DNA from: Escherichia coli
Lineage (GTDB): Bacteria; Pseudomonadota; Gammaproteobacteria; Enterobacterales; Enterobacteriaceae
Length of the DNA stretch: 64,000 nt
Assembly: GCF_030013205.1 (NCBI RefSeq)
Contig: NZ_CP122648.1
Direction: 5' to 3' (one strand)
In this document: in pieces, positions 54,301 through 60,300 of the stretch
How positions within the stretch are numbered: position 1 is the stretch's first letter
Layout: every line of letters starts with the position of its first letter
Made by a program: the position numbers

Positions 54301-57300
54301 TTCAATATCACCCATTTCATAAAAATTTTTTACAATCGTTTTTCCAATCTGAGAGAACAACATAACCACCGGTGGAGTTTCTGGATGCCAGTATTCATTA
54401 GCTAATGAGACTGTCTCAGACAAAACAGTGGAAAACGATGCCATTTTTTCTATATAATTAGCAATATATTGGTTCATTACTTGCCTCCCAAAGCATTCTG
54501 TAAATCCTGAAGAACGTTTTCTGCTGCTGCTCGATCCCCTGGAGATGCTGTTGGATTCTTATCCAACCAATCCTGTAAAGCCCTTGTATAATCCTGTGCT
54601 TTCAATACATGTCCTCTACCACCAACTTTTTCACCTGTGGCCAATTCATAACGAACAGCATCTGCTGTGCTTCCACTTCCTACTTTTGCATTTGGCCGAT
54701 AAAGATCGTCTATAATATTTTTCAAATTTGAATCTGTAACGTCAGGTTTTCCCATCTTCTGTCGCAATTCATCTTTATACCGTTCATGCTGCATACGATC
54801 TCTTGCGCTATTCTCATCTTCTGGTCCCCATCCTCCCGGGCTTCCCGTACTGCCACCACCCAGGCAGTTCTTCTCTTCCTCCGTCAAATCCTTCCCGACA
54901 TTTGGATTCTCTTTTGATGAATCATCATTTCCAAACACGCTGGAAAAAGCACCATAGGGATCTCGCCAGAATTCCATTTGACTTTGTGCATTTAATAATT
55001 CGGCTTCACCCTGCATCTCCATACTTTTCTCAATCGCGTCCCCAACAGCCTCGCGATTGTTGTATATTATTATACCACCACCAATAACCACCGTACCGAC
55101 TGCCGCACCGACTAACATCCCCGGAGGGCCTCCTACCGAACCGATCTCTGTACCTACTTCAGAACCAGTTCCCATGGCAGTTAATGCTCCTGCGCCCAAC
55201 GCCGCACTTAATCCCAGCGGATCCAGCCGTTGCACCGGGTTCAGTGGATACGCATACAGGTTCCATCCCCCCTTCAGCCCAATCGGATCCTGGGTGATAT
55301 ACCTCCCCTGTAGCGGGTCATAGTACCGGTGACGGTTGTAGTACAGCCCCGACTCCTCATCATACTGCTGCCCCGGCAGACGGAGTGACTGTTGAAGGTG
55401 CTGCGTGCTTTCCTCTCCCAGCAGGTTTCCCCACTCGTCATACTCCCCGCGCCACGCCGTTTCCCCTTCCGGGCTGATAAGCGCCTGCGGCAGCCCACGG
55501 TGGTCACAGTGGTAAAGATGAAGTTTCCTCTCCGGGATGTATTCCGCCTCCAGTTGCGCCGCCATCTGTTCCGCCGTCAACCCACACTGTGCAAGCCACT
55601 GCTGGCTTTCTTCACTCACGCTGCCCTGCCGCAGTTCCCGCTCCAGCCTCCCCAGCATCACCGCCAGCTCCGCCGGTAGCGTCACACCCGTGTCCTCCTG
55701 CAACACCTCCGCCAGGCTACGGTGCCGCGCCTTCGCCTGTTCGCCATTCTCTGTTTCGATTCTCAGGAGCGGCGTGAAGCTCCCCGGCTGGTATACCGTC
55801 TGGATACGCGTGGTGTCGGTCTGTACCGTCGTCAGCCTGTCGCCGTCCCACCCGTACCAGGTCACCTCCGGTTTACGCGACAGCGACATCCACCCCGTCA
55901 GGTCACGCTCCCGCCGCCACACCCGTTTTCCCGTCCGGCGGCCCAGCGGGTCATAGAGGTAGCGGCTCTCCACCTGTGGCTCGCCGTGCTGTATCCGCGT
56001 GTAGAACACCAGGCGGTGCTGGCTGTCGTAATGGTAGTGGTGCGTCCGCTCGTCGTGCATCCGTATCACCCCTTCCGGGATACGGTCCGTCTTCTCCGCC
56101 AGCCTGCCGTATTCATCGTAGCGGTAGACATAGTGCGCATCTTCCGTGATGCGGTTATCCGGCCATGCCGTGAGGGTGCTGTCCGGGTGCAGTTCCGGGG
56201 CCGGCAGCCGGTTTCCTGCCGGGTCCGTCGCATACGGGATATCAATGTCCAGGTTCGCTGCCGTGGTGTGGACGCCCGTCAGCCTTCCCGTGTCGCTGTA
56301 ACGGTACTCCCGGCTCTCCTGCGGGCCGCTGATGCGAATTAGCTGTCCGTTGTCGTTCCAGTCGTAGTCACGGTCAAGCTGCGGAAGGTTCAGGTGCCTG
56401 CTCCGGAGCTGGCCGCTGGTATTCCAGGCGGTGGCAAGCTCATATGCCTCCCCGCCGAAGCTGCGGGCCGTCTCACGGTGCAGCCGGTCCCGCGTGTACT
56501 CGACCAGTGGCGTACCACCCAGCTTCATTCCCGCAAGATAACCGCTGCCATACGTCAGCCACTCCACCGGCGGCAGACCGTCCGGCTCCTGACGGGTCGC
56601 CAGCCCCTGTTCGCTGTACGCGTGCTTCGTCTCATGCTCCCACAGCATCTCCCCCGTCTCCGGGTTAACGTGGTTAATTACTACTTACAATGACCTGCCG
56701 TTAATCCCAGACAGGCAGATGCAACTCACTTCACGGAACCGCATCATTTTTCAGTATTTTTTACATACAAACCGAGCTAGAATTTACGGTTGTCGTAAAA
56801 ACTATTTTTAAAATCATTAAATCTCTTATTCAGCAATAAGTTAATAATATATATCTGGATAACCATACCCAACTGTTCAAAGTCCGTATTGCCTCCATAA
56901 AATGGCCAAAGCTGAATCATGAATAAATATTGTATTTATCCTTTCTGAATTATCATTTTGATAATTTTTGAGATATTCCTTAAAAATACCCACTTAATCA
57001 ATCACAAAACAAATATATAAACAATCAATCATCAAATTAGCTTATGTTTAATGAAATTATTTTATAATTCAATAAGTTACATAAATGCTCTATATTTAAA
57101 TTATTGCCATAATACACCTGACGCGAATTGCACAGGTTCACACAATCTATTTAACGCTTGCAGAACACCCCTCTTTACGATCGATAAAAAGTCCTTTTCT
57201 TATTTATTTTGAAGCGTAGAATGCGGGGTGATGAAGGAGTGGTGATTTTATTTTCACCGCCATTATGGCGGCATTGCCGATATTTTTTTGCGGTACAAAT

Positions 57301-60300
57301 ATGCCGTGTTCATGGCCTGTACGAGATAACATGACGGATCACTTTTATGAGCAAAAAATTTGAAGGCAGCGTCGCGCCTCGCGAGCGTATTAATATATCG
57401 TATGTCCCAAAAACAGATGGCCAGACGGCTGAAGTTGAACTTCCGCTTAACATGCTCGTTGTCGGCGATACCGGAAATACGCAGGAAACATCCCCACTGG
57501 ATGAACGTCAGGCAGTTTCCGTTAACAAGCACAATTTCGGTGCAGTGATGGCTGAAGCAGCCATTGGCCTCAATTTTACTGTCCCCGCCACGCTGAAGGG
57601 AAGCACAACAGACGATGAACTGAATGTGGCGCTGAATATCAAATCACTGGATGATTTTTCACCAGATAGCGTGGCCCGGCAGGTTCCGGAAGTGAATAAA
57701 TTGCTGGAACTGCGTGAAGCACTGACTGCGCTGAAGGGGCCGATGGGCAACCTTCCGGCATTCCGTACCCAGCTCCAGGCATTGCTGGAAAATGAAGAGT
57801 CCCGCAAGCAGTTGCTCAAAGAAATCGGCCGGGTGAGCAATAAATAACCACCGCTATTTCATTAAACAGGGTTATCCAGGCATGACGGCACACAAAAATA
57901 TCTCCGGGACATACCACCTCTCTGTTGCAGACATTCTGCAGGTGGTTTACCAGGTATGTTTCAGCCCGTCCGTTGAAATCAACCAGGATGGTGTGGCTGC
58001 GCTGATTACAACACTGGATCGCCGTATCAGTGATCTATTGGATGAGATTATCCATTTTTGTGAGTTTCAGCAGAGCGCGTCGCACTGGCAGCGCGTACTT
58101 CACTGATGGCGAAAAGCCGGTTTCAGAAACACAGCTAAAACAGAAGGATTTTCAGTATGTCTTTACAGGAAGAGGAACTCGTTTCCAGTCATGCCGAGCA
58201 GCCTGAGCAGGCATCGTCGCTGCTTGATCAAATCATGGCACAGACCCGTATTCAGCCCGGTTCGGAAGGTTATGACGTTGCCCGCCAGGGTGTGACAGCC
58301 TTTATTGCCAGCATCCTGCAATCCACTGCATCTGCCGAACCGGTCAATAAACTGGCCGTGGACAGCATGATTGCAGATATTGATGAACGCATCAGCCGCC
58401 AGATGGATGTCATCATCCATGCGCCTGCCTTTCAGCAGGTCGAGTCGTTCTGGCGCTCACTGAAAACCATGGTGGATCGCGTTGATTTCCGTGAAAACAT
58501 CAAGGTCAACGTGCTTCATGTCACCAGGCAGGAACTTCTGGAAGACTTTGAGTTTGCGCCAGAAATTATTCAGTCCGGATTTTATAAGCACGTTTATTCG
58601 TCCGGTTTCGGACAGTTTGGCGGTGAACCCATCGCTGCCGTGCTGGGCGCTTATGAGTTCAAAAATACCGCGCCTGACATGAAACTGCTGCAATACGTCA
58701 GTGCCGTGGGCGCAATGGCGCACGCACCGTTCCTGTCCTCCGTTTCCCCGGAGTTTATGGGGCTGAACTCGTGGACCGAACTGCCTAATATCAAAGATCT
58801 TTATGCCATCTTTGAAGGTCCGGCCTACACCAAATGGCGCGCCCTGCGTGACTCGGAAGATTCGCGCTATTTAGGGCTTACGGCACCCCGCTTCCTGCTT
58901 CGCCAGCCCTATTCACCAACAGATAACCCTGTTAAGAACTTTAACTATCACGAAGATGTCAGCCGGAACCACGAAGATTATCTGTGGGGTAATACGGCCT
59001 GGATGCTGGCGTGCAATGTCGCAGACAGTTTTGCCAAATACCGCTGGTGTCCAAACATTATCGGTCCGCAAAGCGGCGGCGCAGTGAAAGATCTGCCGGT
59101 GCATCTGTTCGAAACGATGGGGCAGATTCAGGCCAAAATCCCAACCGAGGTGCTGGTCACCGATCGCCGCGAATTTGAACTGGCTGAAGAGGGTTTTATC
59201 ACCCTTACCATGCGTAAAGACTCTGATAATGCAGCCTTTTTCTCTGCAAACTCGGTACAAAAACCGAAGCACTTTCCGGGAAAAGACGCAGAAACCAACT
59301 ATAAGCTGGGTACGCAGCTTCCTTATCTCTTCATCATCAATCGGTTAGCGCACTACATCAAGGTGTTGCAGCGTGAACAACTGGGGTCATGGAAAGAAAG
59401 GAGCGACTTAGAAAGAGAGCTTAATACCTGGATCCGTCAGTATGTTGCCGACCAGGAAAACCCGCCTGCGGACGTGCGCAGCCGTAAACCTCTGCGCGCT
59501 GCCAAAGTTGAGGTTATGGATGTGGAAGGCGAACCCGGCTGGTACCAGGTCGCGCTGAGCGTGCGGCCCCATTTTAAATTTATGGGGGCAAACTTTGAGC
59601 TTTCCCTGGTTGGCCGGTTAGACAGGGAGTAACACGCCATGATACCGGATCGGGAAAGAACCACAGGTTCTCTTTTTGAGCGTATGGAAGCCTCACCGGC
59701 CAGAAACCGGCAGGGAAGCAGTATTCATGCGCTCAGGCAGTCCATTCGCCAGAACCTGCGAAACATTCTTAATACCCGGTCCGGTAGTTGCCGGGGTGCG
59801 CCTGAACTGGGCATTGATGAACCGGAAGGGGCTGAAAACTTCCGCGAATCAATGAGCCGGGCCATCGCGCAATGTATAGAACGCTATGAACCCCGGCTCT
59901 CACACGCTGAAGTGCAGGCTGTGGTTTCATCCGCCGCCAGCCCGCTGGATATGACGTTTCATATTACAGCCTGGGTGACATTTAACGAAACGCATGAAGT
60001 GCTTGAATTTGATATGGCACCGAATGGCAGCCAGCATTACCGGGTGGACTGACAGATGGAATTTGAAGAACGCTATTTCCGGGAAGAACTCGATTACCTG
60101 CGCCAGCTCAGCAAGCTGCTGGCAACGGAAAAACCCCATCTGGCCCGCTTCCTGGCCGAAAAAGATGCGGATCCGGATATTGAACGCCTGCTGGAAGGCG
60201 TGGCTTTTCTTACCGGCAATCTTCGCCAGAAAATTGAGGATGAATTCCCAGAACTGACGCACGGGCTTATTAAGATGCTGTGGCCTAATTACCTGCGTCC

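Follow-up and report, generated by a model that had tools for sequence, protein, structure and literature searches.

What is the origin and likely role of a 670-bp AT-rich non-coding region that lies between a fragment of an rhs gene and tssB, at positions 56677-57346 of a 64,000-nucleotide stretch of Escherichia coli DNA (the window)? A sequence-only reading had proposed that the region probably holds the T6SS promoter and H-NS-type silencing sites, and that it may mark the point at which rhs was truncated. All three parts of that interpretation are supported by the present analysis, with corrections, among them that the promoter works in both directions and has lost the gene on its hcp side. 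With a probability of about 0.9, the region is the remnant of a divergent regulatory hcp-tssB spacer of ~700 bp that is silenced by H-NS and now stands as a relic before a non-functional T6SS. The orthology, base composition, conservation pattern and deletion junction described below come from this analysis, and the regulatory properties are carried over from studied orthologues.

The window is E. coli DNA with 100% identity to chromosomes from swine (e.g., K_EC180, O139:H1). Orthology to intact loci identifies 56677-57346 as the spacer of the divergent hcp and tssB genes in the T6SS-2 island (Table 1). In intact loci, the order is rhs<-vgrG<-hcp, 696 bp of spacer, then tssB->, within an island bounded by yafV and a tRNA-Asp gene. 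The tssB side of the window is arranged as in these reference loci; on the hcp side, hcp has been deleted and the rhs remnant occupies its place. Both Pfam hits and annotation bear out the position between an Rhs fragment and tssB. The full 670 bp are present, as a single copy each, in 2228 of 5426 complete E. coli genomes at 96-98.5% identity, the island occurring in just 41% of the genomes. Against the O157:H7 reference, identity is 96.4% across 742 bp, which include all 670 bp. The comparison with T6SS promoters of related strains that the sequence-only reading had suggested thus finds the region orthologous, over its full length, to the T6SS-2 hcp-tssB spacer. Seven SNPs in the spacer occur in none of the nine other E. 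coli sequences compared.

Table 1. Features of the T6SS-2 hcp-tssB spacer and its surroundings in the window
Feature	Position	Strand	Basis or remarks
125-aa ORF, presumed cognate immunity gene	54100-54477	-	position; weak DUF7674 match
rhs remnant, C-terminal ~730 codons of the T6SS-2 Rhs effector	54477-56666	-	Pfam RHS and RHS_repeat
Deletion junction	56664-56666		GTT microhomology within imperfect CTCCnnGTT (7/9)
hcp-tssB intergenic remnant ('t6sP')	56667-57346		696 bp in intact loci; 13-16 bp beside hcp gone
Conserved block ATTTTTTACATACAAAC	56756-56772		identical in E. albertii; ~100 bp from former hcp start
Conserved core	56907-56975		35-bp and 23-bp blocks, identical in E. albertii
AT-rich core	56915-57114		19% GC, lowest-GC 200 bp in the 64 kb
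Candidate hcp-side sigma-70 promoter	56929-56956	-	predicted; -35 ATGATA 56956-56951, -10 TACAAT 56934-56929
Candidate distal tssB-side promoter	56958-56987	+	predicted; -35 TTGATA 56958-56963, -10 AAAAAT 56982-56987
Conserved proximal block	57164-57222	+	82% identity with E. albertii; ends in -10-like TAGAAT 57217-57222
tssB (T6SS sheath, small subunit), at the head of the structural operon	57347-57847	+	Pfam T6SS_VipA, E=1e-51; annotation

The region is therefore a known element, the bidirectional promoter spacer of T6SS-2 already described in EHEC and S. sonnei. It is treated as the bidirectional promoter 't6sP' (PMC13141884), and has been swapped for inducible promoters in EHEC and S. sonnei as well as cloned as a reporter (PMC13141884; PMC10924462). 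Several transcription start sites in the spacer, and binding of H-NS to it, are reported by Kim et al. (2022), as cited in PMC13141884. In an EHEC hns mutant, the genes flanking the spacer on both sides are derepressed (PMC5363993), and an hns deletion has also been studied alongside the EHEC T6SS-2 promoter swap and reporters (PMC13141884). Output from the native spacer reporter is very low even in EHEC hns mutants (PMC13141884), repression of the EHEC T6SS core genes is near-complete (PMC7618764), and PMC13141884 describes the native promoter and activating signal of T6SS-2 as still unknown. Promoter activity and H-NS repression are expected here by analogy with orthologues that are 96-97% identical. 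The proposal of a T6SS promoter is thus supported by orthology at 96-98.5% and the literature on 't6sP', and that of H-NS silencing by the derepression and reported binding in EHEC together with a fitting base composition, both through the likeness to these orthologues. In intact islands, promoters facing outward from the spacer would serve the tssB structural operon in one direction and hcp-vgrG-rhs in the other. Since the spacer is horizontally acquired DNA and very rich in AT, H-NS would coat it and leave both sides almost silent under laboratory conditions, and activation would involve relief of H-NS along with further signals.

The base composition is consistent with this model. GC content is 32.8% over 56677-57346, compared with 51.3% for the window, and only 0.4% of 670-bp segments within the 64 kb fall below the spacer, which, with a core at 19%, confirms its description as very AT-rich. 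These values (33% vs 51% GC, and the 19% GC core), like the position of the island beside tRNA-Asp, fit silencing by H-NS. Composition and the reports on the EHEC orthologue point to 56915-57114 as the most likely zone of H-NS nucleation and spreading. A long hcp-tssB spacer of 29-33% GC also occurs in E. albertii, Salmonella, a Citrobacter-farmeri-like genome and Superficieibacter, flanked by coding DNA of 46-54% GC. A TssB scan with one genome per species returned E. albertii and a probably mis-binned 'Citrobacter' MAG alone, and the more distant hcp-tssB loci were reached through a protein search.

Across species, divergence of the spacer is near-neutral except in a few conserved blocks, of which 56907-56975 is the strongest. 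Identity with E. albertii is 62% overall, compared with 59-60% at the third codon positions of tssB. The conserved core contains the palindrome ATAAATAttgTATTTAT at 56923-56939, its TCATGAATAAATATT is also kept in Salmonella, and the 143 bp at 56879-57021 hold a single variable site (56977) among 10 E. coli. The block nearer the former hcp start has similarly placed counterparts in the Citrobacter-farmeri-like locus (TTTACATACAAA) and in Salmonella (TTACATACA). The hexamer at 57217-57222, TAGAAT here, reads TAAAAT in most E. coli, E. albertii and Salmonella. Another palindrome, AATTATCAtttTGATAATT at 56948-56966, was dropped, as its right arm alone is conserved in E. albertii.

Promoter prediction, which the sequence-only reading had also suggested, performed at chance level in the spacer, where a sigma-70 consensus scan gave 3 sites against 3.1 expected and the best hit of a sigma-70 PWM scan scored 10.9 bits, below the 12.3 bits reached in shuffles. 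Motif scans were judged against dinucleotide-preserving shuffles and, because no motif was enriched over these, the promoter coordinates in Table 1 remain predictions; sequence alone is unable to place the promoters. The predicted hcp-side promoter scores no better than shuffled sequence and is backed by conservation, its candidate -10 reading TATAAT in Salmonella. For the distal tssB-side candidate, the -35 is conserved and the -10 poorly so. From the conserved sequence, we infer that the core promoters and any activator site may lie within 56907-56975 and the TAAAAT-type hexamer at 57217-57222. Although the region carries little weight as a discovery, since the element has already been studied in EHEC and S. 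sonnei, the cross-species footprint narrows the ~700-bp spacer to 56907-56975, 56756-56772 and 57164-57222. These three blocks are places in which to seek core promoters and the activator site, and may be useful to T6SS-2 specialists.

The many short AATCA/ATCAAT repeats to which the sequence-only reading drew attention could instead make up an array bound by a specific regulator (for example Fur, or IHF through its core WATCAA) and acting as the main control element. AATCA on the + strand is indeed found 6 times against 1.7 expected (nominal P=0.004 for a motif picked after seeing the sequence), and ATCAATCAC at 56997-57005 is kept in E. albertii, the only one of the repeats to be so. However, counting both strands reduces the excess to 7 against 3.4 expected (P=0.06), ATCAAT is found twice against 0.7 expected (not significant), and the copy at 57023 arises from SNP 57025, absent from nine other E. 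coli sequences, in a segment (57014-57063) that is among the most polymorphic of the spacer in the E. coli comparison. The repeats thus do not convincingly exceed chance and are not meaningful. The full IHF consensus is absent, with four 8/9 matches against 2.4 expected, and the best Fur match is 13/19 (P=0.46), with zero 7-1-7 sites in the spacer, so that the suggested search for a Fur box came up empty. The scan for H-NS motifs likewise gave nothing specific beyond chance: 2.3 sites matching the TCGATAAATT-like motif in at least 8 of 10 positions were expected and 4 were found (P=0.18), among which TCGATAAAAA at 57181-57190 is the best conserved. Overall, scans of the spacer for Fur, the H-NS 10-mer, IHF, CRP, Fis, sigma-54 and extended -10 motifs found none enriched over shuffles, and a dedicated regulator array is very unlikely. 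The sci1 (T6SS-1) promoter of EAEC, another tightly repressed T6SS promoter of E. coli, is reportedly under Fur/Dam control, a result ascribed to Brunet et al. in 2011. It belongs to another T6SS family, whereas the spacer has no Fur box above chance and just two GATC sites, which is the chance expectation.

The unusual length of the spacer, ~700 bp and maintained across genera, might also be accounted for if it encoded a product of its own, whether a small protein, a small RNA or a cis-regulatory RNA. ORFs of 30-53 aa are present, there is a terminator-like hairpin at 57266-57279, and the putative tssB leader RNA has a folding z-score of -2.1. Yet the small ORFs are interrupted by non-triplet indels in E. 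albertii and, in the case of the 53-aa ORF, in other E. coli as well; with ORFs of 30-53 aa alone and none of them conserved, the description of the region as free of ORFs holds in substance. No Rfam family matches the spacer at E<=1, the hcp-side leader folds with z=-1.5 (neither z-score is compelling), and divergence of the spacer equals that of synonymous-type sites. The hairpin is polymorphic, lying in a palindrome region (57264-57297) that varies within E. coli, and palindrome CCGCCATTATGGCGG is made perfect by SNP 57266, which is absent from nine other E. coli sequences. There is thus scant reason to credit the spacer with its own product. As functional elements, CCGCCATTATGGCGG and the terminator-like hairpin (57255-57279) were dropped, since the segment varies within E. 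coli and is not conserved in E. albertii.

The suspected truncation of rhs is confirmed and mapped to the base, at 56664-56666. The deletion removed 5263 bp relative to strain 144, comprising hcp, its ribosome-binding site, vgrG and rhs codons 1 to ~770, and at the GTT it fused rhs (...CTCCGGGTT, then CTCC) to the hcp leader (...CTCCTTGTT, then AACG). In the swine lineage, a microhomology-mediated deletion accounts for the loss of hcp and vgrG as well as of the 5' half of rhs. The junction is the actual left boundary of the region, about 11-13 bp to the left of 56677, where it had been taken to start. It occurs in only 17 of the 5426 genomes, all from swine, and the hcp-spacer junction is retained in 2222 genomes. 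As far as 56666, the rhs remnant is 99.7% identical to rhs of strain 144; it is annotated as a pseudogene without an N-terminus. The gene for the same 125-aa ORF also lies 3' of the intact rhs in strain 144, and its position suggests an immunity role.

This fusion raises the possibility that the truncated rhs toxin domain and the immunity gene are now expressed as an orphan module under H-NS control from what is left of the hcp side, its promoter and 5' leader. The hcp leader is joined directly to the rhs frame, which is open from 56684 and whose first ATG, at 56648, has a GGAG 9 nt upstream. The candidate hcp-side -10 is retained and conserved, and elsewhere T6SS-independent expression is known for C-terminal Rhs fragments together with their immunity genes (PMC7618764; PMC13141884). 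In those published cases, however, the promoters lie within the 3' part of rhs (PMC7618764; PMC13141884), and the immunity gene would therefore be independent of the hcp promoter, which is itself silenced by H-NS. Moreover, a 723-aa fragment that lacks PAAR and the N-terminal part has no obvious use where no T6SS works, and the clonal junction (17 genomes) is consistent with neutral decay. Such rewiring is thus improbable; if true, a toxin-immunity module would be expressed once H-NS silencing lifts, despite the loss of the secretion machine.

Among known systems, the likeness to 't6sP' of EHEC O157:H7 is that of orthologous DNA (PMC13141884; Kim et al. 2022, J Microbiol 60:928; Wan et al. 2017, PMC5363993). 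In the T6SS-2 of that strain, hcp is named hcp3/hcp-2, and the tssB start and the island are common to the swine lineage. By analogy, the spacer here should likewise be repressed by H-NS, be transcribed divergently and show very low native activity. Unlike EHEC, the swine lineage is without hcp, its ribosome-binding site, vgrG and half of rhs, and its downstream operon is broken by a stop codon in tagH and a tssH-vasL deletion. As an AT-rich regulatory region in a horizontally acquired T6SS island, the spacer is paralleled by that of the Salmonella SPI-6 T6SS, silenced by H-NS according to Brunet et al. 2015 as cited in PMC5363993, and by xenogeneic silencing in general. SPI-6 differs in being a separate T6SS cluster without sequence relation to the spacer; in a Salmonella relative of the T6SS-2 cluster, the divergent hcp/tssB spacer is also AT-rich. 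The same spacer occurs in S. sonnei, where the reporter primers end in TAACATGACGGATCACTTTT (window 57327-57346) and, on the hcp side, CGTTAACAAGGAGTTTACAA (PMC10924462). There, too, it is attached to a decayed T6SS and the native promoters are weak, but hcp still stands beside the spacer and decay proceeded via other mutations (PMC10924462).

Decay in the swine lineage extends beyond the hcp side. The genes vasI, tssA and tssM were lost in a second deletion, which also took parts of tssH and vasL, and the T6SS no longer looks functional. Without tssA, tssM and an intact tagH, the promoter serves a defunct system, and the two deletions together with the tagH stop codon make the promoter region a conserved, and largely a relic, element in this lineage. 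Degeneration of T6SS-2 has been reported in E. coli carrying Shiga-toxin phages (PMC12981562), and the precisely mapped decay in the swine lineage extends these reports.

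The 670-bp AT-rich spacer (56677-57346) belongs to a cluster that is the Escherichia coli T6SS-2, the type present in EHEC (PMC13141884). It lies between an rhs pseudogene that lacks its N-terminus and tssB, which is followed by tssC, tssE, tssF, and tssG (Pfam, RefSeq annotation), with yafV and an ISAs1 element at one end of the island and a tRNA-Asp gene at its other end. Positions 56400-57600 are 100% identical to swine E. coli chromosomes, including those of K_EC180, of the O139:H1 strains W13-16 and P15-25, and of several porcine ETEC strains. Of 5426 complete E. coli genomes, 2228 have all 670 bp in single copy, at 96-98.5% identity and never annotated. 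Where the locus is intact (strain 144, O157:H7 Gim1-1), the order is rhs, vgrG, and hcp, all transcribed leftward, a 696-bp spacer, and tssB transcribed rightward. Given this order and its full-length presence, the region is the hcp-tssB divergent intergenic region. This regulatory element is already known and has been studied by experiment; the present analysis adds modestly to it, through a phylogenetic footprint and an exact deletion map.

Features of the spacer and adjoining DNA
Feature	Position	Strand	Basis or detail
ISAs1-family transposase ORF	52914-53879	-	
rhs pseudogene, no N-terminus	54477-56666	-	Pfam, RefSeq annotation
Candidate minus-strand promoter	-10 TACAAT at 56934-29 (TATAAT in Salmonella); -35 ATGATA	-	inferred
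Candidate plus-strand -35	TTGATA at 56958-63	+	inferred
Candidate proximal tssB -10	conserved TAAAAT-type hexamer at 57217-22	+	predicted
tssB	57347-57847	+	Pfam, RefSeq annotation
74-aa ORF between tssB and tssC	57882-58106	+	annotated hypothetical protein

In EHEC EDL933, the orthologous spacer was named the bidirectional promoter "t6sP," and its replacement by PBAD/Ptac raised tssB and hcp transcripts (PMC13141884). A gfp/mCherry reporter of the spacer gave almost no signal in wild-type cells and a weak one when hns was mutated (PMC13141884), and hns deletion derepresses the genes flanking the spacer on both sides (PMC5363993). H-NS binding and several transcription start sites are described in PMC13141884 through its citations of Wan 2017 and Kim et al. 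2022. By RNA-seq and dRNA-seq, the core genes were almost fully repressed (PMC7618764). The same spacer was cloned as a reporter in both orientations in S. sonnei (PMC10924462); the primer tails TAACATGACGGATCACTTTT and CGTTAACAAGGAGTTTACAA are its two ends, and TAACATGACGGATCACTTTT matches 57327-57346 exactly. Judged by these orthologues, the T6SS promoter proposed in the sequence-only reading would hold, as a bidirectional one, and the H-NS-type silencing proposed with it appears essentially correct, on the same literature and the AT-richness.

That AT-richness, noted in the earlier reading, holds up and is extreme: GC content is 32.8% vs 51.3% for the 64-kb window, just 0.4% of windows of 670 bp fall below it, and no 200-bp stretch of the 64 kb is more AT-rich than 56915-57114 (19% GC). 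A second AT-rich patch (about 30-32% GC) lies at 53800-54200. The idea that the spacer hides a small gene or RNA is not supported, since an Rfam search at E<=1 gave no match and the only ORFs, of 30-53 aa, are broken in E. albertii by indels that are not multiples of three, the longest (53 aa) also in other E. coli by a 1-2 bp indel at 57082; the claim that the region has no ORFs stands to that extent. The repeats fared worse. AATCA occurs six times on the plus strand vs 1.7 expected (nominal P=0.004, for a motif picked after looking) and seven times on both strands vs 3.4 (P=0.06), ATCAAT occurs twice vs 0.7, and the second CAATCAAT copy is owed to a SNP at 57025 carried by none of nine other E. 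coli sequences. No k-mer of the region was commoner than in dinucleotide-preserving shuffles. The repeats carry no weight, and a binding array for a regulator such as IHF or Fur is not supported.

A 552-696 bp hcp-tssB spacer of 29-33% GC, beside coding DNA of 46-54% GC, is kept in E. albertii, Salmonella enterica, a Citrobacter-farmeri-like genome, and Superficieibacter. The spacer as a whole is 62% identical to that of E. albertii, close to the 59-60% of tssB third codon positions, so most of it changes at a nearly neutral rate, as would be the case if H-NS depended on base composition and not on the exact sequence. Two perfect blocks stand within it, one of 35 bp (56907-56941) and one of 23 bp (56953-75), with further constrained blocks at 56756-72, 57181-92, and 57198-210; we calculate a chance of about 1e-5 for a perfect run of 35 bp arising in the spacer at 60% identity. 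Of the 43 columns that are polymorphic among 10 E. coli, only one lies in 56879-57021, whereas 57014-57163 contains 24. Salmonella retains TCATGAATAAATATT and GTAAAATG, and the Citrobacter-like locus retains TTTACATACAAA. Going by the literature on orthologues, the spacer most likely carries divergent promoters that H-NS represses and that need additional signals. The central conserved block may hold back-to-back promoters. The promoter positions in this block and the proximal tssB hexamer are hypotheses, and consensus and PWM scans of the spacer gave sites neither more numerous nor better than in shuffled sequence, as expected for AT-rich DNA.

An ACGGA motif at 57333-57337, 9 nt 5' of the tssB ATG, is also a weak ribosome-binding site, and the surrounding block AGATAACATGA is kept in E. 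albertii. CsrA-type A(N)GGA motifs lie at such a distance upstream of tssB, tssC, hcp3, and paar (PMC13141884). The position of the 74-aa ORF holds a 70-aa ORF in Salmonella (L015 3534-3746) and none in the Citrobacter-farmeri-like and Superficieibacter loci; Kim et al. 2022, a study that PMC13141884 cites, reported separate operons for tssB and tssC. A "Citrobacter sp." MAG contig (DXKH01000078.1) has a spacer and tssB that align almost base for base with E. coli (TssB 99% identical) and probably represents E. coli sequence that was mis-binned, not a Citrobacter T6SS.

The suspected rhs truncation point was confirmed, with the left boundary of the spacer moved to 56664-56666. Compared with strain 144, 53801-56666 aligns to rhs (99.7%) and 56658-57399 to the spacer (98.2%), the alignments overlapping because both sequences share an imperfect CTCCnnGTT, of which GTT at 56664-56666 is the perfect microhomology. 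With the 5263 bp missing between them, this lineage has lost hcp, vgrG, rhs codons 1 to ~770 (of ~1500), and the 13-16 bp adjoining the hcp start, among them the AAGGAG ribosome-binding site. A junction-specific query found the rhs-spacer join in just 17 genomes, all from swine, vs 2222 retaining the normal hcp-spacer junction. Similar deletions arose independently elsewhere: CFSAN004176 and relatives have 222 bp of hcp fused to rhs (L002 13071-13292), and a Superficieibacter genome has an hcp stub of 104 aa adjoining an RHS fragment (L016 1025-2448). T6SS-2 seems to have decayed repeatedly through loss of hcp-vgrG-rhs.

A less probable reading has the deletion rewiring the spacer, so that transcription of the rhs fragment would start from the hcp promoter; the fragment's reading frame is open from 56684, and GGAG precedes its ATG at 56648. 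Published Rhs C-terminal/immunity expression runs from promoters inside rhs (PMC7618764, PMC13141884), so the immunity gene could be expressed without any such rewiring. Beyond the window end (L001 18578-25201 and L007 638-7386, K_EC180), the swine lineage has an internal stop in tagH and, relative to strain 144 (L008), a second deletion that leaves a truncated tssH fused with the 3' end of the vasL-domain gene, with vasI, tssA, and tssM gone. The secretion machine of this lineage cannot be functional, and the promoter region is therefore a relic there. The classical serotype of edema disease, O139:H1, carries Stx2e. This would fit the reported association of stx2 phages with T6SS-2 degeneration (PMC12981562). 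Just past the rhs immunity gene lies the ISAs1-family transposase ORF; in K_EC180 the complete 1137-bp gene has an internal stop and a pseudogene annotation.
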